Sequence record: MN882349.1
Origin: Escherichia phage Ec_Makalu_003
Reading direction: 5' to 3' (one strand)
Length of the DNA stretch: 64,000 nt
This document shows positions 16,755 to 44,573 of this stretch, piece after piece. The number at the start of each line of letters is the position of its first letter. Positions within the stretch are counted from its first letter, which is position 1. The position numbers were made by a program, and so were the translations under genes. The notes beneath the pieces are model-generated. The model ran no database searches. It was not told the DNA's origin and saw only the letters and a program-made list of their open reading frames with translations.

Positions 16755-17575
16755 TTAGTCACCTCACCGAAAATTGTAAATTGTCTACGATTCTCATCGC
16801 CGAAAGATTCTACTACGTCGTTTACCTTGATGCAAGTCCCGCGCGGTAAAATTACTTCACATTCGCAAGGATTCCATGCAATAGACCCAACAACAAAACC
16901 TTTATGATCTTTTACGTCAATTACCCATGATACATTACAAGAATGTTGCATCTTTCCGGTCATTGATTCATATCGATTCTCACAATAAAGGCTAGTGCTG
17001 TTTGAAAGCCATCCTCCAAAGATGATCGGTGTCATGCTGGTCGATACAAAGTTTTTAAAGGTAAATTCCTTATCTTCAATAATACGCTCTATTGTCTGAA
17101 TGTCAAGATGTTGACCGCGATAAAGAGTACCGTTTAACTTTTCGGTTTTATCCATGACACAATCCATCAAATCGACAATCTCTGATATCTCATCGGTCAT
17201 GTCTTCTTCCCCTAAGAGAGCACCATTTACCCATTCGTATTGTTCAGACACATAATCGCAGATTGCATTATATTCTGCTGGGGTTATGTTGTTATGTTTG
17301 TAATGTTTGAATACATTATCTCCAAAATCTTCGGAATGTACTTCATACATCACATTAATGATTTTCTTGACAAATCCATAATCTTGCGTTTCTCGCTCAA
17401 GGAAACGGATAACTTTCACGTAATCATCAAAGTTAATATGATCGCTGATCATTTCAGTGATCATGTAACCATTAATCCCCTCAATGCCATATGTTTCGAT
17501 GTAATTATCCATACGTTCCATCATTGATTCGCGTGATTCTTCGGAAAGGCGAAAATCCTGTAATTTCTTGAACAT
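16751..17575 (-). CDS. Alt-like ADP-ribosyltransferase (second, shorter paralog)
   Basis: Shares the catalytic block with the 683-aa Alt: LYRGQ, FKNFVSTS..IFGGW, ECEVILPRG (Arg / STS / ExE-type). Confidence 0.7.
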   Translation of the reverse strand: MFKKLQDFRLSEESRESMMERMDNYIETYGIEGINGYMITEMISDHINFDDYVKVIRFLERETQDYGFVKKIINVMYEVHSEDFGDNVFKHYKHNNITPAEYNAICDYVSEQYEWVNGALLGEEDMTDEISEIVDLMDCVMDKTEKLNGTLYRGQHLDIQTIERIIEDKEFTFKNFVSTSMTPIIFGGWLSNSTSLYCENRYESMTGKMQHSCNVSWVIDVKDHKGFVVGSIAWNPCECEVILPRGTCIKVNDVVESFGDENRRQFTIFGEVTK

Positions 17576-17597
17576 TTTAAATCTCCCATATAACAGA

Positions 17598-17630
17598 AAA
17601 CGGGGCTAGTATAAAACTAGTCCCCGTTTG
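17598..17630 (-). terminator. terminator hairpin downstream of alt
   Basis: ACGGGGACTAGT...ACTAGCCCCGT hairpin then U-run on minus strand. Confidence 0.55.
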
Positions 17631-17653
17631 AGTCAACCATTATTTCTTAAAAA

Positions 17654-19772: not shown

Positions 19773-19985
19773 TTATAATGCACCATCGAGCAATTGCTCT
19801 AAGGTGTATCCTGAATAGTCTTTTTCAATCAGGATATATTTTCCTACTCGTTTAATACAACCGCGCATTTCAACGTATTCTGCGTAGTTGATGGTGCGAG
19901 TTGTTCCATCTTCTAGTAAAGCAGTACCGATTTCGTTAATGCGGTCATAAGTTACGTCGGTAATGATGATTTCGATGTTAGCCAT
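19773..19985 (-). CDS. hypothetical protein (70 aa)
   Basis: ORF with AAGGAG RBS behind an early promoter cassette. Confidence 0.6.
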   Translation of the reverse strand: MANIEIIITDVTYDRINEIGTALLEDGTTRTINYAEYVEMRGCIKRVGKYILIEKDYSGYTLEQLLDGAL

Positions 19986-20021
19986 TTGATACTCCTTAGT
20001 AGTTCGTTTCGGTATGGGTGT

Positions 20022-20050
20022 ATTATGATATACACCCTCTGTTATGTCAA
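20022..20050 (-). promoter_or_regulatory. early promoter cassette (TTGACA-17-CATAAT)
   Basis: Minus strand -35/-10 with conserved leader ACCCATACCGAAACGAAC and GGAG RBS. Confidence 0.65.
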
Positions 20051-20056
20051 CAACTT

Positions 20057-20236
20057 TTAGAACATTTTTGAAATTAATTCTGCTTTGATTTCGCAGAGAA
20101 CATCTAAAGATTTCTCGTCACCCGCTTTTGCTGCTTCTGCTTGCATTTTTGAAATGGCTTCAATGTCAGTGCAATTATAAGCCGCTTGAACTTTAGCGAT
20201 TGCGATGATTGCCGATTCGATGGTTAAGTGTTTCAT
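20057..20236 (-). CDS. small hypothetical protein (59 aa)
   Basis: ATG with AGGAGAATCAA RBS behind a promoter cassette. Confidence 0.5.
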   Translation of the reverse strand: MKHLTIESAIIAIAKVQAAYNCTDIEAISKMQAEAAKAGDEKSLDVLCEIKAELISKMF

Positions 20237-20268
20237 GTTTGATTCTCCTTTCGTTTCGGTATGTGTGC

Positions 20269-20297
20269 AGTATAGGGGATCGCCGATCCCCTGTCAA
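20269..20297 (-). promoter_or_regulatory. early promoter cassette with palindromic spacer GGGGATCGCCGATCCCC
   Basis: TTGACA-17 bp palindrome-TATACT on minus strand. Confidence 0.7.
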
Positions 20298-20304
20298 CAA
20301 CTTT

Positions 20305-20823
20305 TTAGTTATTTTTTAATTGCTCATCTTGCAATAATGCAATCACATGCTGGCGATGTTCTTCCGATTGAGGAACACCGAAAAAGTTTGTTTTGTAGAA
20401 ATACTCTAATCGGTCTTCTCGTGTGCTCTCTTCCATCATGATCGCGGGTAGTCCAAGATTTCGGAAACGTCGCTTTTCTGCTGGCGTAAAATCACTGTAA
20501 TACAACATAGAATCATCATTACCAGCAATGCTAAACTCATCCTTCATAAAGGAGAATATTGCGTTTAAACGCTGTTTACCGTCCACGATTTCGATCTCAT
20601 AGCGAGAGCCATCATCAATCTTAGCCATTGCGATAGCACCAACCGGAAAATCATTAATCAGGTTTTCGATAAACATACGTTTGTTTTCGGTGTCCCATAC
20701 CAAAGGACGCTGATAATCTGGGTTCATGTTGATATAGCCATCTTCTAACCACGCCTCATAAACAGAGATGACAAAGTTTTTAGTATTGGTATAGTAACGG
20801 CGTTTAGGCGTTAAACGGTTCAT
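20305..20823 (-). CDS. DUF262 (ParB/Srx-fold, GmrSD N-terminal-like) protein
   Basis: DYQRPLVWD...EIVDGKQRLNAI resembles the DUF262 motif (DGQQR); ATG at 20823 with AGGAG RBS. Confidence 0.6.
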   Translation of the reverse strand: MNRLTPKRRYYTNTKNFVISVYEAWLEDGYINMNPDYQRPLVWDTENKRMFIENLINDFPVGAIAMAKIDDGSRYEIEIVDGKQRLNAIFSFMKDEFSIAGNDDSMLYYSDFTPAEKRRFRNLGLPAIMMEESTREDRLEYFYKTNFFGVPQSEEHRQHVIALLQDEQLKNN

Positions 20824-20824
20824 G

Positions 20825-21157
20825 TTATAGTCTCCTGAATGGATCATCACGTAAATCAATATCTTTTAAGAACTCATCCCATGAATGGCGGATAATGTTC
20901 TTAATTCTCCAGATAAGCGCAGGGATTGAACGCTCTCCCATCTGGAAGTAAGGATCATATGATCCATATGCCCAATATGCTACTACAATTCCACAATCGG
21001 CGCAATAATATTCTATTTCACTTGCTGGCGACCAAAGTCCATCAATATGATCACGGATCTTGCTTTCGATGTTATGGCTATGGCAATCAGGGCAACGGAT
21101 GCAATGACCTTGTTTATCGTAATTTGACGTTAGCGAATACTTAAACAATCTCATCAT
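20825..21157 (-). CDS. Cys/His-rich zinc-finger protein, possible HNH-like nuclease
   Basis: CIRCPDCHSHN...RDHIDG...CADCG: two CxxC pairs flanking His/Asp residues. Confidence 0.45.
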   Translation of the reverse strand: MMRLFKYSLTSNYDKQGHCIRCPDCHSHNIESKIRDHIDGLWSPASEIEYYCADCGIVVAYWAYGSYDPYFQMGERSIPALIWRIKNIIRHSWDEFLKDIDLRDDPFRRL

Positions 21158-21870
21158 AGATCCTTATTGGCTTCAAATACTGCCTTTGCGAATCCTCGCG
21201 GGGTAAGTGACCTGATAGTCTTTGTTCTGGTTCCTTTCCCGCCTAGCTTAGAATGCTGTTTACTGTACCCTTTATTAATCTGCAACGGTTTCTTTTCTGG
21301 CATTATAAAGCCTTGTCCGGTCCATAAGCAAGTCTTTTTCGGGTACATATCACGGGCGGCAATATACTCAGGAAACGTAGGATGCTTATCATCTTCCGGC
21401 AAATAACCGCCATATTCCCACGGATGGAACATGTAATCAGGCTTACGCCACATGCTAGAGATAACGCTTACAGGATTCTCTATCATGTAGGGAACTCCTA
21501 GCCATTCACCCAAATAAGCGGTTATTTTAGCTGCCCTTACATCATGAACTTGAATTAATGGTCCTTGTTCTCGTTTCTTTCGTTCAAAGTGCGCAGCGCC
21601 ACTAACAGCTAAATTGGTGCATGGTGGGAATGCAAAGATAATATCCGGTTTCCCCCATTCAAGGTCCATTGCTCTTTCCAGCCAATTTAAATCAATCCAT
21701 GTGTTTACATATGTAATGTTTGGATGTTCAAATCTGGTATTATATTTTTTGTATGTACCGTGGTCGCCATCGTCAGCATTAAAGCAGATCACCTTATGAC
21801 CTGCTTTAGCCCATTCTAACCCCATTATCCCCGATCCGTCAAAGTTGCAGAATATTAATTTTTGTTTCAT
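21154..21870 (-). CDS. DNA (cytosine-5)-methyltransferase-like protein (compact, 238 aa)
   Basis: Motif I-like LIFCNFDGSGIMG, motif IV-like FAFPPCTNLAVSG (PC catalytic dipeptide), motif VI-like MIENP, C-terminal FAKAVF. Confidence 0.55.
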   Translation of the reverse strand: MKQKLIFCNFDGSGIMGLEWAKAGHKVICFNADDGDHGTYKKYNTRFEHPNITYVNTWIDLNWLERAMDLEWGKPDIIFAFPPCTNLAVSGAAHFERKKREQGPLIQVHDVRAAKITAYLGEWLGVPYMIENPVSVISSMWRKPDYMFHPWEYGGYLPEDDKHPTFPEYIAARDMYPKKTCLWTGQGFIMPEKKPLQINKGYSKQHSKLGGKGTRTKTIRSLTPRGFAKAVFEANKDL

Positions 21871-22112
21871 ATACGCCCCTTTAACCCAACACAGATTTTA
21901 GAAGGTTCTTTGCCGTGCCACATTAAGTAAATTCCGTTAATGCGTCCTTGTTTTGTATATGATTCTTTTCTGATCTTCTTATAGTGTCGTGCTTCCTCAG
22001 CCGATTGTTTAGAATGTCGATCATAAAGGAAGAGGAACAAAGGCCAACCATTAGCGGCCTTAATGCAGTTATTCAAAAATTCCTTATTTCGTTTAATTAA
22101 TTTTCTTTTCAC
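21867..22112 (-). CDS. hypothetical basic protein (81 aa)
   Basis: GTG start overlapping the upstream stop; lysine/arginine rich. Confidence 0.45.
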   Translation of the reverse strand: MKRKLIKRNKEFLNNCIKAANGWPLFLFLYDRHSKQSAEEARHYKKIRKESYTKQGRINGIYLMWHGKEPSKICVGLKGRI

Positions 22113-22360
22113 GCTGCCCCCATTGGTTTGATAGTAACAGAATCTAAAAGACCTTTGTTAGCCAGTTCGCGGCAAGTTTTCAGATCCGCAACTTCCCAGC
22201 CAGCCGCAATAAGGTTATCAATGAGGCTGTTAGCAACTTCTTCGCTCATGAAAGAGCACTGTTTGCCGATGGTGTAGCGTACACGCTGTAATTTCAGTTT
22301 ACGGAAGCCTTTAACGTTCAGGTCTTTAGCGATTTTCTTTGCGGTTTCGATGTTAGCCAT
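22109..22360 (-). CDS. hypothetical protein (83 aa)
   Basis: First gene behind the promoter cassette at 22401-22429. Confidence 0.6.
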   Translation of the reverse strand: MANIETAKKIAKDLNVKGFRKLKLQRVRYTIGKQCSFMSEEVANSLIDNLIAAGWEVADLKTCRELANKGLLDSVTIKPMGAA

Positions 22361-22400
22361 TGTTTGATTCTCCTAAGTGGTATCTCGTCTTGATGGTTGT

Positions 22401-22429
22401 ATTGTAGGGGAGTTATCCTCCCCTGTCAA
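22401..22429 (-). promoter_or_regulatory. early promoter cassette with palindromic spacer GGGGAGGATAACTCCCC
   Basis: TTGACA-17-TACAAT on minus strand. Confidence 0.65.
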
Positions 22430-22443
22430 CACTTTTTATAAAA

Positions 22444-22611
22444 TTATTTGTTAATTTCTGGTGCGTTGCTAGGATAGTAACCTTCTTTAACTCCGAGGTA
22501 TTTTGCAACCATCCCTACAATCTTCTGTGCTACTACAATGTCAAATTTCAGATAATCTTCGCCGTGGGTTTCAATGATATATGCTTCACATGCTGCTTTA
22601 GTCTCGAACAT
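22444..22611 (-). CDS. small hypothetical protein (55 aa), copy 1 of a duplicated gene
   Basis: MFETKAACEAYIIETHGEDYLKFDIVVAQK..., about 87 percent aa identity to 25726-25893. Confidence 0.6.
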   Translation of the reverse strand: MFETKAACEAYIIETHGEDYLKFDIVVAQKIVGMVAKYLGVKEGYYPSNAPEINK

Positions 22612-22644
22612 TTTGATTCTCCTATTTCGTTTCGGTATGTGTGT

Positions 22645-22673
22645 ATTATAGGGGATCTCCCGATCCCCGTCAA
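22645..22673 (-). promoter_or_regulatory. early promoter cassette (TTGACG, GGGGATC-containing spacer, TATAAT)
   Basis: Same cassette type as 20269-20297. Confidence 0.65.
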
Positions 22674-22687
22674 CAACTTTTTTAAAA

Positions 22688-22969
22688 TTATTCGTGATTA
22701 GTTTCGATATTGTGCATTTTGCACCAGTTCAGCCAATCGCCAAGATCTTGATAGTTGATGCTTTTATCTGCTGCCATCGTTTTTGTCTTGATACCCATAT
22801 GTGCGTTATGAGTAAGCATTTTTACAGTGAACTCAATTTTATCGCCTTTAGCTTTAACATCAACCAGTTTGGTCCACTGGCTACCAGCACCGCGAATGTT
22901 CATACCAACGATGTTTCCGATGTATGCTTCTTTGTTGTTCAGGATTTCGGTTGCTTTGATGAATTTCAT
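22688..22969 (-). CDS. hypothetical protein (93 aa)
   Basis: ORF with RBS behind promoter cassette. Confidence 0.6.
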   Translation of the reverse strand: MKFIKATEILNNKEAYIGNIVGMNIRGAGSQWTKLVDVKAKGDKIEFTVKMLTHNAHMGIKTKTMAADKSINYQDLGDWLNWCKMHNIETNHE

Positions 22970-23002
22970 TTTTGATTCTCCAGTTCGTTTCGGTATGGGT
23001 GT

Positions 23003-23031
23003 ATTATGCTATGTTCTTACTTTGGTGTCAA
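23003..23031 (-). promoter_or_regulatory. early promoter cassette (TTGACA-17-CATAAT)
   Basis: Minus-strand consensus elements plus conserved leader. Confidence 0.65.
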
Positions 23032-23039
23032 CAACTTTT

Positions 23040-23309
23040 TTAGATATTTTCAGAAATAAATTTTAAAACTTGACGTAAATGTTTCTCATCTTTGATAGTC
23101 GCCGGAAGTTCTTCTTTTACTTCCTGTGCAAGATAGATATTTCCGTTCCAAGTGAAAGACCCGTCTTCGTTTACGCGATAGCTGAACATCCATTCGCAAT
23201 CATTTTCGATTTCATATACACACAGAAGGGTGTAATCTTCAAAGCTATTGATTTCAAGGTCGAAGCCGTGGCGTTTTGCAAAGTTGGTAGTGGTTTTAGT
23301 CAGTGCCAT
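23040..23309 (-). CDS. hypothetical protein (89 aa)
   Basis: ORF with GGAGAATCAA RBS. Confidence 0.6.
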   Translation of the reverse strand: MALTKTTTNFAKRHGFDLEINSFEDYTLLCVYEIENDCEWMFSYRVNEDGSFTWNGNIYLAQEVKEELPATIKDEKHLRQVLKFISENI

Positions 23310-23349
23310 TGTTTGATTCTCCTAAGTGGTATCTCGTTTCGATGGGTGT

Positions 23350-23378
23350 ATTATGCTATAGGCGTGATCAGGTGTCAA
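23350..23378 (-). promoter_or_regulatory. early promoter cassette (TTGACA-17-CATAAT)
   Basis: Minus-strand consensus elements. Confidence 0.65.
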
Positions 23379-23435
23379 TGCCTTTTTTAAAATTTTATGC
23401 AATAAAAAAGCCGACACTAAGGTCGGCTAATAAAA

Positions 23436-23744
23436 TCATTTAGACAAATAATCATTCAGTGCAATCCGGTCGGCATGTTCCGGCGTTACATCAATCGCAA
23501 TCACTTTAACGCGTGCTTTCTTGCGACCTGGGTTTTCTCGTAACCAGTGCTCATGACCGTGAACATTTTTATACTGCGATGCTTCTTCGAAGGTACGGAT
23601 CGGACCAGGGTAATCAGCGTAAAGGATCTCTAGGTCATCGGTGATGTAAAAATATACGTTGTAATTACTGTTCTCTAGCTTAAGCAGAGACTTTCGGAAC
23701 ATTGGGAGATTTTCGCGGGTAAATTCAAAAGTAATATCTTTCAT
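23436..23744 (-). CDS. small protein, member 1 of HxHW paralog family
   Basis: Start at MKDITFEF with GAGGA RBS; motifs VYFYITDD...HGHEHW...VIAIDV. Confidence 0.6.
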   Translation of the reverse strand: MKDITFEFTRENLPMFRKSLLKLENSNYNVYFYITDDLEILYADYPGPIRTFEEASQYKNVHGHEHWLRENPGRKKARVKVIAIDVTPEHADRIALNDYLSK

Positions 23745-23793
23745 AGTATTATCCTCAATAGTTGGATGAAAAGGGGGCTTAACGCCCCATATA

Positions 23794-24081
23794 TTAAAAC
23801 AGTCCTTCCTGTACACCGTAGTAGAGTTCGTCGCTGATAATTTCATTAATGCGACGGTGTGCATATTCCTGATTTGCGAAGTTGTCAGCAAGTTCTACTT
23901 TAGTTTCACCGTCATGAGTCCATTTAGTGATAACTTTACCATCTGCAAATTTGAAGTTGAACTCTTTAGCTACTGCATCGCGTACCAGACGTGCGAACTT
24001 GTTGTTACGGATTGCATTATCGGTTTCGTGTGCAGCGTGAGCAAATTTGTTAACTTTCAGAGTGATAGTGATGTATGCCAT
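23794..24081 (-). CDS. hypothetical protein (95 aa)
   Basis: ORF with AGGAGAATCAA RBS behind promoter cassette. Confidence 0.6.
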   Translation of the reverse strand: MAYITITLKVNKFAHAAHETDNAIRNNKFARLVRDAVAKEFNFKFADGKVITKWTHDGETKVELADNFANQEYAHRRINEIISDELYYGVQEGLF

Positions 24082-24127
24082 AATTTGATTCTCCTAGTTA
24101 GAAAGTGTATCTCGTTTCGATGGGTGT

Positions 24128-24156
24128 ATTATGCTATACACCCGATCTTATGTCAA
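24128..24156 (-). promoter_or_regulatory. early promoter cassette (TTGACA-17-CATAAT)
   Basis: Minus-strand consensus elements. Confidence 0.65.
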
Positions 24157-24163
24157 CACTTTT

Positions 24164-24442
24164 TTATAAAATAATTTTTTGATATTTTTCTATGATGTTT
24201 GTGTAATCCACATCAACCGCTATCACCGTTGCTTCGAATCCACCGTTTAGCCAATGGCTATGGTCATGATCGTGAAAGAAACCAAGACCAGTACGAAGAC
24301 CTTCTTTATATTCGGCGCGTACATTTAGATCATCATCGATAAACAGATAAAACCATGAATTTTTACTAGGATTGATGATACAACCTTTCAGATTAGGGAG
24401 AATATCACGACTAAGAATAAACTTATCACCTACTTTGAACAT
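24164..24442 (-). CDS. small protein, member 2 of HxHW paralog family
   Basis: Start MFKVGDKF with GAGGA RBS; motifs FYLFIDDD...HDHSHW...VIAVDV. Confidence 0.6.
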   Translation of the reverse strand: MFKVGDKFILSRDILPNLKGCIINPSKNSWFYLFIDDDLNVRAEYKEGLRTGLGFFHDHDHSHWLNGGFEATVIAVDVDYTNIIEKYQKIIL

Positions 24443-24446
24443 AATA

Positions 24447-24767
24447 TTAGTCCTCACTTATAAGGTCAAACCAATTGTTTTTCGCATAATGCTTAATGCG
24501 TGCTTGATCTGCTTCCGCTGGTGATAGATTCCATGCAACCACTACAACTTCTGACGCGTCGTCATCCGTTTCTGATACCCAATGATTGTGATTCATACAG
24601 TTATTTGCGATCGAGTGAGCAAATGATTTCATCACTGGAGACGTATAATCATAGTAACGGATTTTCAGATTTTCATCAACATACAAGTAGATCGTATAAG
24701 GTTTATATTCAGTAACCAGTAACAGACAGTTACGCAATTCTGGGAAAATCTTTTTAGTTAATTTCAT
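24447..24767 (-). CDS. small protein, member 3 of HxHW paralog family
   Basis: Start MKLTKKIF with GAGGAT RBS; motifs IYLYVDEN...NHNHW...VVVVAWN. Confidence 0.55.
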   Translation of the reverse strand: MKLTKKIFPELRNCLLLVTEYKPYTIYLYVDENLKIRYYDYTSPVMKSFAHSIANNCMNHNHWVSETDDDASEVVVVAWNLSPAEADQARIKHYAKNNWFDLISED

Positions 24768-24768
24768 T

Positions 24769-24987
24769 TTATAATCCTCGGTCGCGGCTATAGTACACGG
24801 TACGCCATACAATTTCATGTTTCGTGTCGCTCCAGCACACGATCTCATTTACTCTTAAATCTTTGTTATCAACAAAAGATGAACATTGTGACGCTTCTTT
24901 CATCATTTTATCTGCTGTTTTCTCATCAAATACAGCACAGATTTCTTTATACACTCGATAATCTTTGAATTGACTCTGGATACCCAT
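24769..24987 (-). CDS. small hypothetical protein, tandem paralog of 24947-25204
   Basis: SQFKDYRVYKEICAVFDEKTADKMMKEASQC versus SKFKDYKAYQQILRVYDAEFAEKMMEDASKC. Confidence 0.5.
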   Translation of the reverse strand: MGIQSQFKDYRVYKEICAVFDEKTADKMMKEASQCSSFVDNKDLRVNEIVCWSDTKHEIVWRTVYYSRDRGL

Positions 24988-25204
24988 AATTAACACCATT
25001 CCAACCAATTGTTTTTGAGAAAACGTTTATCCACTGTTGAGTGTAGCATGTTTCTTTCCATGATACAATACGAGTAGAATAATGGTTTTTGTTTCCAGAA
25101 AAGGACGGGCATTTTGATGCATCTTCCATCATCTTTTCGGCGAACTCCGCGTCATATACCCGCAGGATCTGTTGATATGCTTTATAATCTTTAAATTTGC
25201 TCAT
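24947..25204 (-). CDS. small hypothetical protein, tandem paralog of 24769-24987
   Basis: 85 aa ORF; 3' end overlaps the start of its paralog. Confidence 0.5.
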   Translation of the reverse strand: MSKFKDYKAYQQILRVYDAEFAEKMMEDASKCPSFSGNKNHYSTRIVSWKETCYTQQWINVFSKTIGWNGVNYGYPESIQRLSSV

Positions 25205-25469
25205 AATTGTTAACTACCTTATCAGCTTCTTTTATTGTTTTTACATCAACTGCGATAATCCGTAAAGGTTCGTCGAAGGTCCACCAGTGGTCATGAATAT
25301 CAGCTTGTGATTTATCACCAAAGGAATCACGAATATCATTTTTACATTTATAGCTAATATGGCCTTCATAGTCAACATAAAGGTAATTATCGAAAATCGG
25401 AGTTTTTAAGATCATACCGAAAAATCTTTCTTTGTGTGTCTTATCAAGTGTTGCAGTAATTCGCATCAT
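25191..25469 (-). CDS. small protein, member 4 of HxHW paralog family
   Basis: AAGAGGA RBS; motifs YLYVDYEG...IHDHWW...IIAVDV. Confidence 0.6.
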   Translation of the reverse strand: MMRITATLDKTHKERFFGMILKTPIFDNYLYVDYEGHISYKCKNDIRDSFGDKSQADIHDHWWTFDEPLRIIAVDVKTIKEADKVVNNYEQI

Positions 25470-25481
25470 AATATATTCCTC

Positions 25482-25661
25482 TTAGAAAGGGATGGTCATT
25501 TCTTGAGCTTGTACATTCTCGTTAGGATTAAACTTCATCCAACCGATATTGTCTACCAGCATATGTACATTTTTATCATATCCTACGTGAGTAGTCAACA
25601 CTAAATGTGCTTTACCTTCAACGATGATTTCCATGTACTTCTGAACTTCGATAGCTTTCAT
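25482..25661 (-). CDS. small hypothetical protein (59 aa)
   Basis: ATG with GGAGAATCAA RBS behind promoter cassette 25694-25722. Confidence 0.5.
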   Translation of the reverse strand: MKAIEVQKYMEIIVEGKAHLVLTTHVGYDKNVHMLVDNIGWMKFNPNENVQAQEMTIPF

Positions 25662-25693
25662 TTTGATTCTCCGTTTGTTGTCTTGATGGGAGT

Positions 25694-25722
25694 ATCTTAC
25701 TACTCCCTTTAATCATTGTCAA
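25694..25722 (-). promoter_or_regulatory. early promoter cassette (TTGACA-17-TAAGAT)
   Basis: Minus-strand elements; spacer contains GGGAGTAG...ACTCCC-like palindrome. Confidence 0.6.
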
Positions 25723-25725
25723 CTA

Positions 25726-25893
25726 TTATTTGTTAATTTCTGGTGCGTTGCTCGGATAGTAACCTTCTTTAACACCCAGATATTTTGCAACCATTCCGGT
25801 GATCTTCTGTGCTACTACGATATCGAATTTCAGGTAGTCTTCACCGTGGTTTGCTACAATGTATGCTTCGCATTCTGCTTTAGTCTGGAACAT
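25726..25893 (-). CDS. small hypothetical protein (55 aa), copy 2 of a duplicated gene
   Basis: MFQTKAECEAYIVANHGEDYLKFDIVVAQK...; about 85 percent nt identity with 22444-22611. Confidence 0.6.
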   Translation of the reverse strand: MFQTKAECEAYIVANHGEDYLKFDIVVAQKITGMVAKYLGVKEGYYPSNAPEINK

Positions 25894-25927
25894 TTTTGAT
25901 TCTCCTATATCTCGTTGGTATGTGTGC

Positions 25928-25956
25928 ATTATAGGGGATCACCGATCCCCTGTCAA
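25928..25956 (-). promoter_or_regulatory. early promoter cassette with palindromic spacer GGGGATCACCGATCCCC
   Basis: TTGACA-17-TATAAT on minus strand. Confidence 0.7.
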
Positions 25957-25961
25957 CAACT

Positions 25962-26255
25962 TTATAATGCTTTATACGCGTATTTCATAAATTTGTCTGC
26001 CACTTCATTGGCATGTTCAGATTCTACGCCTGATTCGAGAACAATAGCTAGGTCGGTTTCGTCATTCCCGCCGTACCAATGATTTGATGTTCGATTTTTT
26101 TCAATTGGAAATTGGTCACTTTTATCTGTGCGACAAAATACATCTAAATGCTCGTCGATGTAAAAGATCCAATCTTCATAAAGAATAACGGTATTAGCAA
26201 GATTTTTATTGCCTTCAACGAAAGGTTCCGCGACAAATAGCTTAGTTTGTTCCAT
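25962..26255 (-). CDS. small protein, member 5 of HxHW paralog family (divergent)
   Basis: Start MEQTKLF with GAGGAA RBS; motifs IFYIDEHLD...SNHWYG...AIVLESGV. Confidence 0.5.
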   Translation of the reverse strand: MEQTKLFVAEPFVEGNKNLANTVILYEDWIFYIDEHLDVFCRTDKSDQFPIEKNRTSNHWYGGNDETDLAIVLESGVESEHANEVADKFMKYAYKAL

Positions 26256-26271
26256 AGTAATTTCCTCAAAA

Positions 26272-26463
26272 TTATACAGTTTCGTAAACTTCCCAATGTT
26301 CAGCGCCAACACGCTTAACGAAAAGGTTTTCTTTGATGTTATTCATAAACGTCTGGATGGATTTAATGCGGTTTGAAGGTTTCCATTCTTCGTTGGCATT
26401 GCGTCGATACATCATAACATTACCAGTTCGCTTATATTCAGCAACCATTTTAAGACCACACAT
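26272..26463 (-). CDS. hypothetical protein (63 aa)
   Basis: ATG with GAGGATAAT RBS. Confidence 0.55.
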   Translation of the reverse strand: MCGLKMVAEYKRTGNVMMYRRNANEEWKPSNRIKSIQTFMNNIKENLFVKRVGAEHWEVYETV

Positions 26464-26520
26464 AATATTATCCTCAATTTGTGGGAGAGTATTACCCCTC
26501 CCAATGATTGTTATGTTATA

Positions 26521-26841
26521 TCACACAAAATGGCGTGTCAATGCTTCTTTTGCGGTTCCGCTAAGACTTTCAATCTCGCCTGGCATAACATCAACCGCCA
26601 GAACTTCTACAACATCTTCGGACCCTAACCAGTGAGTATGGCCTTTGTAGAACTTGATAACCAGACCACCTTCCTCGTCCCATTTAACGCTATCGCTAGC
26701 CCACCACACATCACCGTCGATAAAGTTGATGTAAAGCACACTACGCCACATTGAATTAATTACTTTCAATACTGCGCCTTTCATCTCTTCCACGGTATGG
26801 TCTTCCATTTTGAAGACCTCACCTACCTGAACTTTTGCCAT
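26521..26841 (-). CDS. small protein, member 6 of HxHW paralog family
   Basis: Motifs LYINFIDGD...GHTHW...VLAVDV. Confidence 0.6.
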   Translation of the reverse strand: MAKVQVGEVFKMEDHTVEEMKGAVLKVINSMWRSVLYINFIDGDVWWASDSVKWDEEGGLVIKFYKGHTHWLGSEDVVEVLAVDVMPGEIESLSGTAKEALTRHFV

Positions 26842-26858
26842 TTAGTCACCTCTCTTTA

Positions 26859-27038
26859 TTACATAACAATCACGCCAGCCGTTGAAAGTTGATGTTTCAA
26901 CTGAGCATTTTCTGCTACTGTCAAATCAATGATTTCTTGTGACGCTGCAATCATATAACCATTGGTGATATTGTTTTGCATCAGTTCAATGGTTTCTTCG
27001 TTGTAGCGGATTTTAGCGATGATTTCGTTGAAGTTCAT
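26859..27038 (-). CDS. small hypothetical protein (59 aa)
   Basis: Start MNFNEIIAK with AGGAGAATCAA RBS; the track ORF start lies in the translated leader. Confidence 0.55.
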   Translation of the reverse strand: MNFNEIIAKIRYNEETIELMQNNITNGYMIAASQEIIDLTVAENAQLKHQLSTAGVIVM

Positions 27039-27072
27039 AATTGATTCTCCTAGTTCGTTTCGGTATGTGTGC

Positions 27073-27101
27073 AGTATAGGGGATCGCCGATCCCCTGTCA
27101 A
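27073..27101 (-). promoter_or_regulatory. early promoter cassette with palindromic spacer GGGGATCGCCGATCCCC
   Basis: TTGACA-17-TATACT on minus strand; near-identical to the cassette at 20269-20297. Confidence 0.7.
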
Positions 27102-27114
27102 CAACTTTTTTGAA

Positions 27115-27591
27115 TTATTTTTCTTGATGCTCGCGCTCGTACTTTTCGAAATAAAATTCTACTGGCTGATCGTGGATTGAAAGCAAGCCAAAGCGTTTAG
27201 CCGCACGTAATCCCATGTTACGTTGAATGTACTTCTGGAAGTTCTCGCGTATACACTTACGCCAGTATTCTAAGCCCATACAGCTTTTGTAAAGATTGCA
27301 TTGCACACAAGCCGGATTCATGTTGTCAAGTATATCGTGCTCCGGTTTATGCATTCCTACAACCTTATACTTCCACGATCCATCATCATTACGGGCAATT
27401 CGTCCATTTTCATCATAGACTACTTTTGAGCGTCGCAATACTGGTTTGATGTGGTCTGCGTGCCAGCGATCCCCTAGTTCCTCGCCACAATAGGCACAAC
27501 GCCCACCGTATTTCATTTTCAGGATCTGGCGTTGCTCTTTCTTTGACAATTTTTTAGGTTTAGGGGCTTTCGCCCCTTCATTATCACACAT
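27115..27591 (-). CDS. HNH endonuclease
   Basis: CAYCG...HADHIKP...NMNPACVQCN: canonical HNH CxxC / H-x-DH / N / CxxC arrangement; start overlaps the ligase stop. Confidence 0.8.
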   Translation of the reverse strand: MCDNEGAKAPKPKKLSKKEQRQILKMKYGGRCAYCGEELGDRWHADHIKPVLRRSKVVYDENGRIARNDDGSWKYKVVGMHKPEHDILDNMNPACVQCNLYKSCMGLEYWRKCIRENFQKYIQRNMGLRAAKRFGLLSIHDQPVEFYFEKYEREHQEK

Positions 27592-34497: not shown

Positions 34498-34896
34498 TTA
34501 ACTTTCCAGAATATCGCGAGCTTCGTTACGCTCTTTGATGATTTTCAGGACAAATTCCAGTTTTTCTTTGTTCAGTGTCCCGTTTTCCATCGCTTCTTTT
34601 ACGGTGAACACTCCGCCACCTTGCCCGTATACAGTGACAGTGATTTCGCCTAACATCGTGGTATGAAAACCGCCAATTTTCGGTGATTCGAACGAAACAA
34701 TCACCTCGCGGACAGTATTACCGTCGTTGATTTCTGAGAGGGTAATGTCGTTTTTGTAGGCGGTTGCTTTAACCATACGGATCAGCATAGTCTGATCTGG
34801 GGAGATGGTCATTTTATCCATTGCATGTTGCAATGCAGCGTAACCGAAAACTTTAACGAAGTCCAGAACGTCTTTGCGAGTTTGAAATTTAATCAT
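34498..34896 (-). CDS. hypothetical protein (132 aa)
   Basis: ORF with AAGGAG RBS behind promoter cassette. Confidence 0.6.
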   Translation of the reverse strand: MIKFQTRKDVLDFVKVFGYAALQHAMDKMTISPDQTMLIRMVKATAYKNDITLSEINDGNTVREVIVSFESPKIGGFHTTMLGEITVTVYGQGGGVFTVKEAMENGTLNKEKLEFVLKIIKERNEARDILES

Positions 34897-34938
34897 CTTG
34901 ATACTCCTTAGTAAGTTAGTTTCGTTTCGATGGGGGGT

Positions 34939-34967
34939 ATATTACTACTCCCGTGATATGCTGTCAA
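34939..34967 (-). promoter_or_regulatory. early promoter cassette (TTGACA-17-TAATAT)
   Basis: Minus-strand elements, GGGAGTAG palindromic spacer. Confidence 0.6.
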
Positions 34968-34975
34968 TTGCTTTT

Positions 34976-35125
34976 TTATGCAACCGCAAACATCAACATT
35001 TGAACATTCTTGGCTGTCTGGCTTTCAAAGTTCTGACATTCTTTGATAATGTCCTCTACTTTCTCGCCAGAGATCTCCGCGTAAGTTTCGATTGCCATTT
35101 TCAGTACCGCGTCAAAGTTGTTCAT
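34976..35125 (-). CDS. small hypothetical protein (49 aa)
   Basis: ATG with AAGGAGAACCAA RBS behind promoter cassette. Confidence 0.4.
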   Translation of the reverse strand: MNNFDAVLKMAIETYAEISGEKVEDIIKECQNFESQTAKNVQMLMFAVA

Positions 35126-35163
35126 TTGGTTCTCCTTAAAGTGTATTTCGTTTCGATGGGGGT

Positions 35164-35192
35164 ATATTACTACCCCCGTTATTCAGTGTCAA
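35164..35192 (-). promoter_or_regulatory. early promoter cassette (TTGACA-17-TAATAT)
   Basis: Minus-strand elements. Confidence 0.6.
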
Positions 35193-35411
35193 CTACTTTT
35201 TAATGACAAGTTCGAATTTTGCTACCTTGCGTCCTCGTTTATTGAAAGCAACCCACGGACGGTTTTCAATGTAGAACAATTCTTCACCAATAATGAATAT
35301 TGGCTGATTGTAAAGGCGACCCATCAGGTCACGTTGGCGAATAGTAGTAGATTCGTATACTTCGCCTACTACAAAGTGTTTGCTGATAGAGTCGGTGCAA
35401 GTAAATTTCAT
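35193..35411 (-). CDS. hypothetical protein (72 aa)
   Basis: ORF with AGGAGAATCAA RBS. Confidence 0.55.
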   Translation of the reverse strand: MKFTCTDSISKHFVVGEVYESTTIRQRDLMGRLYNQPIFIIGEELFYIENRPWVAFNKRGRKVAKFELVIKK

Positions 35412-35444
35412 TTTGATTCTCCTTTGTTTCGTTTCGATGGGAGT

Positions 35445-35473
35445 ATCTTACAACTCCCAATATTCAGTGTCAA
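35445..35473 (-). promoter_or_regulatory. early promoter cassette (TTGACA-17-TAAGAT)
   Basis: Minus-strand elements. Confidence 0.6.
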
Positions 35474-35480
35474 CTGCTTT

Positions 35481-35699
35481 TTACTTGTTGTATTCATTCC
35501 ACCAACGAGTAAGTTTATCGATTATTTTTGTGTTTCTATCCAATTTCTCCCACCGTTTACGCGGGTTTATAAGCCGGAATAGGTAGGGTGTACTTGTTAA
35601 GTGAACTCGGTCAAAATAATGGTTGATAAGCTGGCATTCAATTCTCAATTTCATCTTTTTACGATGAAAATATGCAATCACTTGTTCTTCTGTTTCCAT
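35481..35699 (-). CDS. hypothetical protein (72 aa)
   Basis: ORF with GGAGGAAC RBS. Confidence 0.55.
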   Translation of the reverse strand: METEEQVIAYFHRKKMKLRIECQLINHYFDRVHLTSTPYLFRLINPRKRWEKLDRNTKIIDKLTRWWNEYNK

Positions 35700-35723
35700 A
35701 TGTTCCTCCGTTTCGATGCGTGC

Positions 35724-35752
35724 ATTATGCTATACCCCGGTCCGATTGTCAA
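35724..35752 (-). promoter_or_regulatory. early promoter cassette (TTGACA-17-CATAAT)
   Basis: Minus-strand elements. Confidence 0.6.
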
Positions 35753-35799
35753 CACCCAATAACAAAAAAGTCGCCACTATGGGCGACTTAGGTTAAACA

Positions 35800-37789: not shown

Positions 37790-37956
37790 TATCCGACAAC
37801 CTCAAAACATTTATCATCAGGAAGAATAGCCCATTCTACGCCGTATTCATCCTTAACGTAGTAGCAAGTCCCATCATGTCGAGCATCATATTCATCACCG
37901 ACAACAAAGCTATCAGCTAGCTCAAAATCTACAGCAACACATTTTAATTTTGCCAT
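37789..37956 (-). CDS. small hypothetical protein (55 aa)
   Basis: Start MAKLKCVAVDF with GAGGA RBS behind promoter cassette; the track ORF start lies in the leader. Confidence 0.5.
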   Translation of the reverse strand: MAKLKCVAVDFELADSFVVGDEYDARHDGTCYYVKDEYGVEWAILPDDKCFEVVG

Positions 37957-37987
37957 AATAAAATCCTCATTTGTTTTTGATGGTTGC

Positions 37988-38016
37988 AGTATAGCGGGGA
38001 TTTCTCCCCGCGTCAA
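37988..38016 (-). promoter_or_regulatory. early promoter cassette (TTGACG, palindromic spacer CGGGGAGAAATCCCCGC, TATACT)
   Basis: Minus-strand elements just downstream of the nrdA stop. Confidence 0.6.
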
Positions 38017-38024
38017 CACTTATT

Positions 38025-42770: not shown

Positions 42771-43100
42771 TCAAATCAGTTTGAAATAGTTTTCGTTTAC
42801 ATTTTCTTCTGTGATTGCTGTCTTAAATTCAGCTTCATCATCAGGCGAAACATAATAGCGTTCGGAATAATCACGCCACATTTTCAGTAAGCTAACACCA
42901 ACATTAACACCGTTTTCCCAGAAACGGAATACAATTTTATGTGCGGTGTAACGGTAATCACTTTGAATCAAGCTACCATCCCCGCGACGGGCTTCATAAA
43001 CCGTAATACATTCACGATTAGCGGCTTTAAGGCATTCTTCAATAGTTCCGCATGAGACAATTTCGGTTGATTCGTCTACGATTTTTTCTACTGTCCACAT
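42771..43100 (-). CDS. hypothetical protein (109 aa)
   Basis: ORF with GAGGAT RBS behind promoter cassette. Confidence 0.6.
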   Translation of the reverse strand: MWTVEKIVDESTEIVSCGTIEECLKAANRECITVYEARRGDGSLIQSDYRYTAHKIVFRFWENGVNVGVSLLKMWRDYSERYYVSPDDEAEFKTAITEENVNENYFKLI

Positions 43101-43131
43101 AATATAATCCTCTCTTTGTTTCGATGTTTGT

Positions 43132-43159
43132 ATTATACATCATCTGTATTCGGTGTCAA
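43132..43159 (-). promoter_or_regulatory. early promoter cassette (TTGACA-16-TATAAT)
   Basis: Minus-strand elements. Confidence 0.6.
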
Positions 43160-43485
43160 CCTTTTTGTTCCATGAAAAGCGGTGCTGTTTCTTCTTTCAG
43201 TTTAATAACTAGCGCGGAAACTTCATCAAGAAAATCTTTTTCCATATGAGCAAGCATTGATTTAGAATCTTTGATGACTTTCAAAGAATATTCACTTAGA
43301 TTTCCTTTTCCTAACAATAATGCAGGATACACACTATGTGGGATCTCGATTTCATGATATTCGCTCATAGTATAATATTTGTGAATTTTTAAATCTATAT
43401 TTCTTCGTTGTACGTCCACATCAGCAATGACATACAGAAGTTCGATTTTATCACTTTTCTGGGAAAGGGTAGCATTCAAAAACAT
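43156..43485 (-). CDS. hypothetical protein (109 aa)
   Basis: Start MFLNATLSQ with GGAGGA RBS; track ORF start at 43524 would overlap the promoter. Confidence 0.55.
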   Translation of the reverse strand: MFLNATLSQKSDKIELLYVIADVDVQRRNIDLKIHKYYTMSEYHEIEIPHSVYPALLLGKGNLSEYSLKVIKDSKSMLAHMEKDFLDEVSALVIKLKEETAPLFMEQKG

Positions 43486-43515
43486 TGTTAATCCTCCGTT
43501 GTTTCGATGTGTGGT

Positions 43516-43543
43516 ATTATACATTACCGCGCCAGAATGTCAA
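43516..43543 (-). promoter_or_regulatory. early promoter cassette (TTGACA-16-TATAAT)
   Basis: Minus-strand elements. Confidence 0.6.
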
Positions 43544-43569
43544 TATATTTTTCATAAAAATTTAGGCAA

Positions 43570-43596
43570 TAAAAAGCCTCCCCGAAGGAAGGCTTT
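43570..43596 (-). terminator. rho-independent terminator (UUCG loop) downstream of gene 32
   Basis: AGCCUUCC-UUCG-GGGAGGCU hairpin then U-run on minus strand. Confidence 0.65.
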
Positions 43597-43604
43597 AAAA
43601 TTCA

Positions 43605-44573
43605 TTACATCCCTAACAGAGCGTCAAGATCATCCAGATCAGAAGCGGAGGAAGTACCGCCACCCAGGTCCAGAGATGCCATCAGGTCATCAGCGGAAGA
43701 ATCTAACGCCGTGCTAGCTGCGTTAATACCAACTACAGTGCTAGCTGCGGTAGTACCAGCGTCGAATGCATTCATCTGTGCGTCAAAATCATCAAGCTGG
43801 CTGTTAATCGCTGCCGCAGCACTGGAAGCCGCAGCACCAGCTACCATAGAAACGCCCATAGTTTTCTTAAATTTGGTTTCCAGTTCATCGAACGGTTTAA
43901 ACTGGCTAGGCGCTACAATCTCACTCAGATCAACCATGTTTTCCATCAGATATTTCTGATATGCTTCGTCTTCAATTTTCGGAAGCTGTGATTGCTGCAT
44001 GAAACGAGAATCATCATAGTTCTGGTGTTTATCAACCTTCTTAGCTTTCAGGAGGAAGTTAGCACCGGAGAACACACAAGTTACATCTACCGGAACTTCG
44101 CCCATGTCGGTATTCACGTTAACCATCGCAACGATCTTATCATAAATTTTCTGACCGAAGCGGAATTTAAATACCTTACCTTCGTTTTCTGGTGCTTGAG
44201 GATCTTTCAGTACCAGAATGTTTGCGTAGTAAGACGCTTTACGCTTAATCAGTTGCCATTCGGTTTTATCGGTATTGTACAAATCTTTTTCGTTAATATA
44301 TTTGCACACAGGGCAAGAATCAAAATCACCGTGGGTGCTGGAGCAGTTTTCCCAATACCATTTTCCATTAACTTTGAAGGAATGGTTTACCAGTTTCACA
44401 ATCGGCAGACCGTCTTCTGTCTTAGACGGCAGGAAGCGAATCAGGGCTTCACCGTTACCTGCTGCATCAGTCTTAATCTTCCACTCTTTCGGGTCTTCTT
44501 TGGAGAAACCGTTGCCACCTTTCAGTGCGGCCAGTTGAGCTTGCAGTTTGGAAGAATCTTGGCGTTTAAACAT
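43605..44573 (-). CDS. 32: single-stranded DNA-binding protein gp32
   Basis: MFKRQ N-terminus, LIRFLPSK, zinc-binding region, acidic C-terminal tail as in T4 gp32. Confidence 0.92.

Follow-up and report, generated by a model that had tools for sequence, protein, structure and literature searches.

Early promoter cassettes of Escherichia phage Ec_Makalu_003 as promoter-early stem-loops of the RB49 type

What kind of element recurs, nearly unchanged, ahead of small early genes in a T4-type phage, and does a subset of its copies with a GATC-containing palindrome serve a purpose of its own? The question is raised by Escherichia phage Ec_Makalu_003 (sequence record MN882349.1), of which we analyzed a 64-kb stretch, hereafter the window; the interval of special interest comprises positions 19986-27110, where all genes lie on the minus strand. 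Our answer, held with high confidence, is that the repeated cassettes are the promoter-early stem-loops (PeSLs) of RB49/phi1-type phages (genus Krischvirus). In the best explanation of the data, the GATC palindrome is one stem variant that was spread by copying, not a separate device.

Promoter cassettes and their counterparts in RB49

The cassettes share a common order of parts on the minus strand: an A-tract, TTGAC(A/G), a 17-nt spacer, a (T/C)A(T/A)AAT-like -10 hexamer, a leader, GGAG and an ATG. Directly 5' of the -35 hexamer, most of them carry TAA...AAAAAGTTG, i.e. an AT-rich tract right after the stop codon of the upstream gene. Named by the start of the -35 hexamer, the interval holds 11 cassettes (20050, 20297, 22429, 22673, 23031, 23378, 24156, 25722, 25956, 26541 and 27101), and 15 lie elsewhere in the window (17636; 34967, 35192, 35473 and 35752; 38016; 43159, 43543 and 44637; 60921, 61144, 61428, 61741, 62447 and 62722). 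All 26 belong to the minus strand, and the plus strand has none. The main clusters are found at 17.6-27.1 kb (alt to ligase), 34.9-35.8 kb and 60.9-62.7 kb; four more cassettes occur at 38.0 kb and 43.1-44.6 kb. The initial annotation of this DNA had placed roughly 20 cassettes in the interval; the repetition itself stands, but the number has to be corrected to 11, or to 26 for the window. Cassettes do precede genes, as proposed, but not almost every small minus-strand gene: the 11 cassettes of the interval serve 23 coding sequences (CDS), a ratio of about one half, and the remaining genes are translationally coupled.

In each of the 11 interval cassettes, the promoter hexamers match 10-12 of 12 positions at a spacer of 17 nt; the range of 16-17 bp given earlier holds only when the window is included, where three cassettes outside the interval have 16 nt. 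The -10 hexamer reads TATAAT, TATACT, CATAAT or TAAGAT, with TACAAT and TAACAT in single cassettes; its distance to the ATG is 24-42 nt, and the open reading frames (ORFs) that follow mostly encode 49-132 aa. A motif scan of the whole window yields a strong non-random excess. On the minus strand, 29 sites match the promoter hexamers at 11/12 positions or more, and a single site does so on the plus strand; dinucleotide shuffles predict 1.2 +/- 1.0 for either strand. Perfect 12/12 matches number 7 against 0.01 expected. The enrichment is confined to this high-scoring class, as a loose scan (at least 9/12) gives 34 matches against 26 +/- 6, which is not significant. Independently, a repeat finder recovered families of 5-13 copies of 48-73 nt each. 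The repeats are real and highly non-random.

Database matches of the interval identify the source phage as a Krischvirus, i.e. an RB49-like, T4-type coliphage. The interval is matched by 63 phage records, all from RB49-like T4-type coliphages of this genus, with Escherichia phage Ec_Makalu_001 as the best match (99.6% identity over the full length). It is collinear with ORFs 185-212 of RB49 (NC_005066), from just past alt to DNA ligase, and in this region RB49 and the window are about 96-98% identical. The Makalu_001 record contains 23 CDS across the interval, nearly all labelled 'hypothetical protein'.

PeSLs were defined in RB49 and phi1 by Arbiol et al. 2010 (Genome Biol Evol 2:140; PMC2839356). 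They report 51-52 PeSLs per genome, mostly before ORFans in hyperplastic regions, and five subclasses by stem position, the commonest having the stem between -35 and -10 or over -10. In a lacZ fusion, the promoter of RB49 PeSL206/205 was measured at about 13,000 Miller units. Mutations in the -35 or -10 were acquired by most clones of the two PeSLs tested, 193/192 and 206/205, and the stem of PeSL211/210 terminates comparably to rrnB T1. Furthermore, mini-circles formed by PeSL-PeSL exchange around ORF192 and ORF210 were detected by inverse PCR and sequencing. The RB49-type element is described as TTGACA-N17-TATAAT with a Gn-loop-Cn stem by Comeau, Arbiol and Krisch 2014 (PMC4122927). RB49 promoters have T or C at -12 and are C-rich from -3 to -1 (Nolan 2006, PMC1524935); as cited there from Desplats 2002, mapped early 5' ends of RB49 agree with the consensus. 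Mapping of 5' ends is also the test by which the initial annotation wanted its promoters to be judged.

The link between these elements and the cassettes is direct. Among the intergenic sequences extracted from RB49, PeSL206/205 equals window positions 25894-25964 base for base, i.e. the cassette with GGGGATCGGTGATCCCC, and the terminator-tested stem of PeSL211/210 is GGGGATCACGTATCCCC, which is of the GATC type. Hence, assay data already exist for the GATC version in both roles, promoter spacer and terminator. The Makalu_001 record marks the palindrome equivalent to window 25932-25951 as 'terminator'. The window contains the features that characterize PeSLs: promoter, AT-rich tract, stem, Shine-Dalgarno sequence (SD) with a small ORF, clustered copies, and insertion/deletion (indel) junctions. 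The initial annotation had likened the repeats to the PeSL cassettes of T4-type phages, and this reading is borne out by the same genus, the same region (RB49 ORFs 185-212) and one identical cassette.

This type of element is already known in the genus and in this very region, and the window adds no new kind. The PeSLs of RB49 and phi1 agree with those of the window in genus, region, architecture, the identical cassette and the location of ORF192 and ORF210 polymorphisms at PeSLs, and they differ in nothing essential. The window has its own occupied and empty sites: unlike RB49, it is devoid of ORF192, of the ORF195-196 block and of ORF210-211, and it possesses a chimeric PeSL at 27101. The PeSL passages of Arbiol et al. 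(PMC2839356) do not single out GATC stems, a conserved leader or the fixed GGAGAAUCAAA. The PeSLs of PST/T4 and nt-1/KVP40 (PMC4122927) are likewise promoter-plus-stem-loop units in hyperplastic regions and tied to indels. However, they follow a T4-type TTTACW-N17-TAYWAT or a Vibrio-type TTGYVH-N17-TAWWAT consensus, and their stems are AT-richer and usually upstream of the promoter, whereas the window has near-perfect sigma-70 promoters with a Gn-loop-Cn stem inside. Phage morons and integron cassettes, a comparison drawn in the PeSL authors' own discussion, are also self-contained modules with their own promoter and terminator between resident genes. In the window, by contrast, neither an integrase nor an attC-type site is present, exchange apparently finds its homology in the repeated regulatory sequence, and the modules are co-oriented with their neighbours.

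Stem-loops and the GATC palindrome

The 26 cassettes can be classified by the position of their stem. It lies in the spacer in seven, over the -10 hexamer in about ten and downstream of it in one (26541); four cassettes have a canonical stem-plus-T-run terminator just upstream (23378, 35752, 43543 and 62722), and four have none (23031, 43159, 44637 and 61741). The spacer had been described as a perfect palindrome in many copies; a spacer stem is present in 7 of 26 only, and that of 22429 is imperfect. The spacer class comprises GGGGATC-N3-GATCCCC (four copies), GGGGATC-GGGA-GATCCCC, GGGGAG-GATAA-CTCCCC and GCGGGGA-GAAA-TCCCCGC; the stems over -10 include GGGTGTAT-AGCATA-ATACACCC, GGGAGTA-GTAAGA-TACTCCC and GGGGGTA-...-TACCCCC. 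When the 40 nt starting at the -35 end are folded and compared with shuffles, the hairpin z is below -2 in 15 of the 25 cassettes folded.

Is the structure of these stems conserved, or merely their sequence? A scan of the IMG/VR database with GTTGACAGGGG-N9-CCCCTA returned 25 loci, among them further Krischvirus genomes, further T4-like contigs (GGGGATGAACAATCCCC) and unrelated contigs with a GC content near 50% (GGGGAGATTATCTCCCC); 18 distinct promoters were analyzed. The covariation test was restricted to the three inner pairs, whose positions are left free by the search pattern. Pairing is seen in 92% of the spacer-stem cells; the corresponding figures are 77 +/- 2.5% for shuffles and 49-71% with a slid partner. 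Two-sided changes occur in 18 cells where 7.9 +/- 1.9 are expected, a value reached in 0 of 500 shuffles, and the pair types include AU, GC, CG, UG and GU. An orthologous pair outside the spacer class agrees with this: GGGTGTAT/ATACACCC of the window's 24156 cassette corresponds to GGGGATAT/ATATCCCC in RB49 199/198, i.e. to two compensatory pair changes.

The stems are also asymmetric between strands. Among 49 distinct Krischvirus cassette hairpins (drawn from the window, RB49, Makalu_001 and the Krischvirus loci of IMG/VR), the sense strand is more stable in 31 and the antisense strand in 5 (Wilcoxon p = 4e-6). The sense-minus-antisense energy averages -0.9 kcal/mol, and the largest gaps are due to sense-strand G·U pairs; the sense strand is the more stable one because imperfect pairs are G·U on that strand. 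The test uses the hairpin energy difference only, as G·U counts in antisense folds of the whole region are uninterpretable. Selection on the read-through RNA, or at any rate on the sense strand, explains this bias better than selection for a palindrome in the duplex. We did not meet the asymmetry in the PeSL passages of the earlier papers, and it appears to be new here.

Two groups of contigs in the IMG/VR scan deserve a separate remark. Six contigs of about 50% GC (loci L006, L008, L017, L018, L020 and L025) exhibit the same design at one or two sites each: TTGACA, a self-complementary GGGG...CCCC spacer (GGGGAGATTATCTCCCC), a -10 hexamer and a conserved leader of their own (CTTATCTTATCGGAG). 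The T4-like contigs L012 and L013 (GC 36-40%) carry several PeSL-like promoters with the leader CATCAAC. Spacer-hairpin promoters may be more widespread than T4-like phages.

Five copies of the GATC palindrome are located in the window, at 20275-20291, 22651-22668 (a variant, GGGGATCTCCCGATCCCC on the plus strand), 25934-25950, 27079-27095 and 61122-61138. All five had been listed in the initial annotation at these places, its coordinates being those of the -10 ends. The suggestion made there, that the palindrome acts as an operator or a Dam-sensitive site, finds no support. In its full form it would make the palindrome a distinct site, either the operator of a repressor (a phage or host dimer) or a Dam switch on a subset of early promoters. 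Indeed, the palindrome is a perfect 7+7 repeat that puts two GATC sites between the hexamers of five promoters; Dam is encoded in the genus (RB49p063), and no MotA or AsiA has been found or annotated in RB49, which leaves room for another way of shutting off early promoters. The same spot, however, holds other self-complementary sequences elsewhere (GGGGAGG..CTCCCC, GCGGGGA..TCCCCGC, GGGGAGAT.ATCTCCCC and GGGGAT..ATCCCC), and the arms covary: compensatory changes are expected of a structure, not of a sequence read by a protein. Orthologues that lose GATC keep the pairing or shorten the stem. The RB49 187/186 orthologue GGGGGTC...GATCCCC has lost one GATC and kept a sense-strand G·U pair, and in the 211/210 orthologue the GATC-type stem is shortened. 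Furthermore, the two sites occupy positions 4-7 and 11-14 of the 17-nt spacer, so that neither overlaps a hexamer, and GATC is common in the genome (354 observed against 335 expected under a Markov model). In the Dam-sensitive promoters known to us, GATC overlaps the -35 or -10 hexamer, and methylation alters polymerase binding. Nor do the five copies count as independent evidence: they are paralogous across about 70 nt, and these common flanks point to a single ancestor. Finally, the identical PeSL206/205 is very strong in plain uninfected E. coli, according to the reporter data given in PMC2839356. Taken together, we regard an operator or Dam switch as very improbable.

A recognition of paired GATC sites in the manner of SeqA was considered as well and dropped. 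The two sites are only 7 bp apart, and this spacing is too close for same-face SeqA binding.

The loop of the palindrome shows a pattern of its own. Its three nucleotides read GGT (sense) in some copies and the reverse complement ACC in others, besides GGC, GCA and ACG; the sites compared are window 25934-25950 and 61122-61138 and RB49 187/186 and 210/209 (locus L005), so numbers are small. It looks as if the palindrome had been inverted, e.g. by template switching.

One may also ask whether the stem variants are interchangeable at all. The GATC hairpins could form a subclass that, via methylation or a phage protein binding the hairpin or palindrome, times the shut-off of its promoters in a phage without MotA and AsiA, or targets site-specific, integron-like PeSL exchange; we consider this improbable.

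Gene exchange at the cassettes and a proposed mechanism

If the cassettes are PeSLs, they should coincide with sites of gene gain and loss. The window from 19.0 to 29.2 kb was compared with RB49, Makalu_001, ECD7, FL20, Brandy and JK32, which revealed seven distinct indels. In five of them both junctions lie in PeSL repeats, although cassettes cover only about 10% of the region; by a binomial estimate, the chance that at least five of seven random junctions fall in cassettes is about 2e-4. The ORF at 20057-20236 (minus strand), between the 20297 and 20050 PeSLs, is missing in ECD7 and JK32. The ORF at 22444-22611 (RB49 ORF191) is missing in Brandy and JK32, with the junction at the 22673 cassette, and RB49 ORF192 is inserted at 22688-22692, with its junction at the same cassette. 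RB49, Brandy and JK32 have an ORF195-196 block at the 97-nt repeat 23331-23427. ORF210 (plus ORF211 in RB49) belongs at 27054-27131, where the window is without it. Where the window has an extra ORF, or the repeat is aligned two times, the PeSL junctions overlap by 42-97 nt; two of the RB49 junctions show blocks that simply adjoin in the alignment.

The last of these sites seems to have retained a scar. Window 27036-27131 lacks the ORF210 cassette that is present in RB49, Makalu_001 and ECD7, and also RB49 ORF211. The 27101 cassette is chimeric: upstream it matches the PeSL that precedes the ORF210 homologue of Makalu_001 and ECD7, and downstream it matches PeSL210/209. Excision of the ORF210 cassette should yield just such a sequence, and the chimera represents the genomic counterpart of the ORF210 mini-circle excision known from RB49 and phi1.

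Cassettes have also been copied together with genes. A module of one PeSL plus a 55-aa ORF is duplicated at 22443-22614 and 25725-25896 (86% nt and 89% aa identity), and several genes of the interval are paralogues. Could the similarity be simply a by-product of recent tandem gene duplication, with copied ordinary promoters and with stems and leader devoid of function? Most cassettes, however, precede unrelated ORFs, as do the near-identical PeSLs 20250-20322 and 27054-27126 (90%), and near-identical cassettes stand 35-42 kb apart (60.9-62.7 kb versus 20-27 kb). Since the stems in addition covary and are kept across genomes and distant T4-like contigs, we give this explanation almost no credence.

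A more serious alternative is that the G-run/C-run stems act chiefly on DNA, as targets of a dedicated protein for DNA binding or recombination, or as hairpins or cruciforms of single-stranded or supercoiled DNA, and thereby guide site-specific PeSL-PeSL exchange, and not as RNA attenuators. Such a role was raised by Arbiol et al., who cite GGGC/GCCC motifs at T4 deletion end points (PMC2839356); the five of seven indels with junctions in PeSLs and the GGT/ACC loops, as if inverted, would be in line with it. On the other hand, the junctions share 42-97 nt, and cross-overs also fall in the A-tract or the leader, a pattern in keeping with ordinary homologous exchange. Conservation or a position at a junction is likewise seen for cassettes without an in-promoter stem (23031, 23378). 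Only the sense strand tolerates wobble pairs, as expected for RNA but not for recognition of a duplex, although a DNA hairpin of the sense strand would also agree with this; and no recombinase has been identified in RB49 or phi1. We therefore rate a primarily DNA-level function as unlikely, with somewhat more weight than the other alternatives discussed here.

The PeSL model that we prefer can be outlined as follows. Each unit of 75-100 nt would sit between two small early genes. The A-tract 5' of the -35 hexamer resembles an UP element, and the near-consensus sigma-70 promoter (TTGACA, 17 nt, TATAAT/CATAAT) would be read by unmodified host RNA polymerase right after infection; promoter activity is known for the RB49 sequence identical to the 25956 cassette, from the fusion data in PMC2839356. 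Transcripts would start in a conserved region (C-A-T at about +1), followed by an A/C-rich, presumably unstructured leader. Behind both the UP-element and the CAT-start assignments stand the general features of E. coli promoters and the RB49 mapping cited above. The fixed ribosome site GGAGAAUCAAA-ATG may confer uniformly high translation. The G-run/loop/C-run hairpin would be transcribed only in read-through RNA from the upstream gene, where it may attenuate or terminate read-through and insulate the cassettes from each other. Such an effect has been demonstrated for one RB49 GATC-type stem (PMC2839356); for the others we infer it from covariation and sense-strand G·U pairs. Finally, phage homologous recombination would cross over between cassettes, because 50-100 nt of near-identical sequence in the same orientation recur every few hundred bases, and ORF-plus-PeSL modules would thereby be deleted, inserted or duplicated.

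Several observations weigh against this model. About 8 of the 26 cassettes are without a stem in the promoter core, four of them having an upstream terminator and four nothing. The stems inside the promoters do not qualify as canonical intrinsic terminators: only 2-3 U are found in the 8 nt downstream of a spacer stem and just one in the 8 nt downstream of a -10 stem, and a terminator scan lists no in-promoter stem on the minus strand. For 19-28 kb, the only minus-strand intergenic terminators listed are 23428-23409, 23788-23774 and 19767-19751; the 17636 stem, unlike the other in-promoter stems, does carry a T-run. Lacking a U-tract, the in-promoter stems are better read as attenuators or RNA 3'-end elements than as 'terminators' proper. 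The published termination result, as reported, concerns one stem in one reporter construct, and RNA processing or stability could account for it. Covariation in the -10-overlapping class is weak (two double changes) in a closely related set, because the copies are too similar. Two of the seven indels lie away from PeSLs, namely one at 21869..22096 in JK32 and, at 26839-26841, an insertion of 265 nt in FL20. Both fall at gene boundaries where few bases are shared; hence genes are gained and lost here by other routes besides PeSL exchange. For this phage, transcription, termination and recombination are predicted from the sequence. An Rfam scan of 19000-28000 (E <= 1) returned a single chance snoRNA match inside a CDS (E = 0.3, under the gathering score).

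Leaders, individual cassettes and neighbouring genes

The conserved leader of the initial annotation exists as a family. CATACCGAAACGA has six exact copies, all on the minus strand, and 10 matches with at most two mismatches against 1.5 expected; GGAGAATCAA has 13 copies, again all on the minus strand. The exact CATACCGAAACGA, however, is found in only 5 of the 11 interval cassettes, and the other interval leaders are variants, e.g. CATCGAAACGA, CATCAAGACGA and CATACCAACGA. Leaders start with CAT, and the ribosome site GGAG is present mostly as GGAGAATCAAA; as for the SD, 12 copies read GGAGAAUCAAA and a single copy reads GGAGAACCAAA.

The GGAG sites had been compared with those cut by T4 RegB. 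Together with S1, this nuclease recognizes an 11-nt single-stranded site, GGAGRAYARAA, whose tail almost never contains C and whose most conserved bases are the A at positions 6, 8 and 11 (Durand et al. 2006, PMC1702504). The cassette site GGAGAAUCAAA fits 10 of these 11 positions and is likewise single-stranded, A-rich and situated on early transcripts, in a genus with a RegB homologue; it differs at position 8, where it invariably has C, a base that T4 sites hardly ever allow there. As a result, the strict consensus GGAGRAYARAA has 0 matches in the window, whereas the relaxed GGAGRAYNRAA has 13 matches, all at cassette SDs, against 1.15 expected. The regB region lies outside the window, and the presence of RegB was judged from RB49 and the genus: RB49 RegB, described as divergent in a review (PMC3014915), is about 42% identical to T4 RegB, and copies at least 95% identical to it occur in 58 phage records. 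From the sequence of the sites, cleavage by RegB at GGAGAAUCAAA is plausible. In a milder version of the shut-off idea, the invariant GGAGAAUCAAA might be an RB49-type RegB/S1 site that shuts off the whole ORFan regulon post-transcriptionally.

The individual cassettes, all on the minus strand, differ mainly in their stems. Three in the interval carry the stem over -10. The 20050 cassette (19983..20062) has its -35 at 20045-20050, -10 CATAAT at 20022-20027 and the stem GGGTGTAT/ATACACCC at 20016-20037 (hairpin z = -5.8); leader CATACCGAAACGA (20004-20016), SD (19994-19997) and ATG (19983-19985) lead into a 70-aa ORF. The 24156 cassette (24079..24168) has the same stem GGGTGTAT/ATACACCC at 24121-24144, with -35 at 24151-24156, -10 CATAAT at 24128-24133, ATG at 24079-24081, a 95-aa ORF and z = -4.5. 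At 25659..25734, GGGAGTA/TACTCCC spans 25688-25707, with -35 at 25717-25722, -10 TAAGAT at 25694-25699, ATG at 25659-25661, a 59-aa ORF and z = -4.7.

Four interval cassettes have the GATC palindrome in the spacer. At 20234..20309, GGGGATCGGCGATCCCC (20275-20291) stands between -35 (20292-20297) and -10 TATACT (20269-20274), followed by the leader (20251-20263), ATG (20234-20236) and a 59-aa ORF. The variant at 22609..22685 comprises -35 TTGACG (22668-22673), GGGGATC-GGGA-GATCCCC (22651-22668), -10 TATAAT (22645-22650) and ATG (22609-22611); its 55-aa ORF is a paralogue of 25726-25893. That paralogue follows the cassette at 25891..25968, which consists of -35 (25951-25956), GGGGATCGGTGATCCCC (25934-25950), -10 TATAAT (25928-25933) and ATG (25891-25893), again with a 55-aa ORF. 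The chimeric cassette at 27036..27126 has -35 at 27096-27101, GGGGATCGGCGATCCCC at 27079-27095, -10 at 27073-27078 and ATG at 27036-27038 before a 59-aa ORF. A spacer stem without GATC, GGGGAGGATAACTCCCC (22407-22423; z = -4.4), occurs at 22358..22441 between -35 (22424-22429) and -10 TACAAT (22401-22406); the leader is CATCAAGACGA, and the ATG (22358-22360) opens an 83-aa ORF.

The remaining three interval cassettes depart further from the common form. At 22967..23043, a PeSL-type promoter (-35 23026-23031, -10 CATAAT 23003-23008, leader CATACCGAAACGA, ATG 22967-22969, 93-aa ORF) gave no hairpin on folding. The cassette at 23307..23428 (-35 23373-23378, -10 23350-23355, ATG 23307-23309, 89-aa ORF) has a canonical terminator, AGCCGACCTTAGTGTCGGCT plus a T-run at 23409-23428, 5' of its -35. 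A weaker variant at 26461..26553, whose RB49 counterpart is 208/207, has its stem GGGAGGGGTAATACTCTCCC (26483-26502) 3' of -10 TAACAT (26513-26518), with -35 at 26536-26541, SD GAGG, ATG at 26461-26463 and a 63-aa ORF.

Outside the interval, the cassette at 17573..17648 has -35 TTGACT (17631-17636) and a long stem CGGGGACTAGT/ACTAGCCCCG that encloses the -10 and is followed by a T-run, i.e. a true terminator shape (z = -5.7; 274-aa ORF). Four cassettes are clustered before small ORFs at 34894..35764 (-35 starts 34967, 35192, 35473 and 35752); the first three have stems over -10 (GGGGGTA/TACCCCC, GGGAGT/ACTCCC), and the fourth has an upstream terminator. At 37954..38028, the spacer palindrome is GCGGGGA-GAAA-TCCCCGC without GATC (-35 TTGACG 38011-38016; z = -5.3). 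The three consensus promoters with 16-nt spacers at 43098..44649 (-35 starts 43159, 43543 and 44637) are without a promoter-core stem; two have the leader CATCGAAAC, and an upstream terminator is found at 43543. Finally, a cluster of six at 60856..62734 (-35 starts 60921, 61144, 61428, 61741, 62447 and 62722) includes the fifth GATC palindrome (61144; 61122-61138), GGGAGTA/TACTCCC over -10 at 60921, 61428 and 62447, and an upstream terminator at 62722.

As for the neighbouring genes, a Pfam search with ten ORFs gave no matches beyond GmrSD_N, HNH and a weak zinc ribbon, and these have no bearing on the cassettes. Upstream of the 20297 cassette, in the direction of the genes, lie a GmrSD_N (DUF262) protein (20305-20823, E = 4e-20) and a zinc-ribbon-like ORF (20825-21157). 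The product of 21154-21870 is a C-5 cytosine DNA methylase according to the annotation of related records, and Pfam gave no match for it. In a T4-like phage with cytosine DNA, the DUF262 nuclease-like protein and the adjoining methylase may form a defence or anti-defence pair. The hyperplastic region 23436-26841 is made up partly of diverged paralogues. One family of about 92-106 aa (23436-23744, 24164-24442, 24447-24767 and 26521-26841; 26-29% identity) has no Pfam match; near the C-terminus, the members at 23436, 24164 and 26521 share the motif H-x-H-W ... (V/I)-x-A-(I/V)-D-V, of which 24447 has H-N-H-W only. A tandem pair, 24769-24987 and 24947-25204, is 43% identical, again with no Pfam match.

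For the annotation of such genomes, we propose that these sites be labelled as early promoters/PeSLs, and in the engineering of RB49-like therapeutic phages, PeSLs should be treated as rearrangement hot spots. With the help of genomes sequenced since the original PeSL work, the window provides an independent confirmation of it; new here are the covariation of the spacer stems with sense-only G·U pairs, the location of five of seven indels at PeSLs, and the deletion scar at 27101. PeSLs are among the few concrete, experimentally supported routes by which accessory genes are shuffled in large virulent phages: one reusable promoter/terminator linker doubles as a recombination site.

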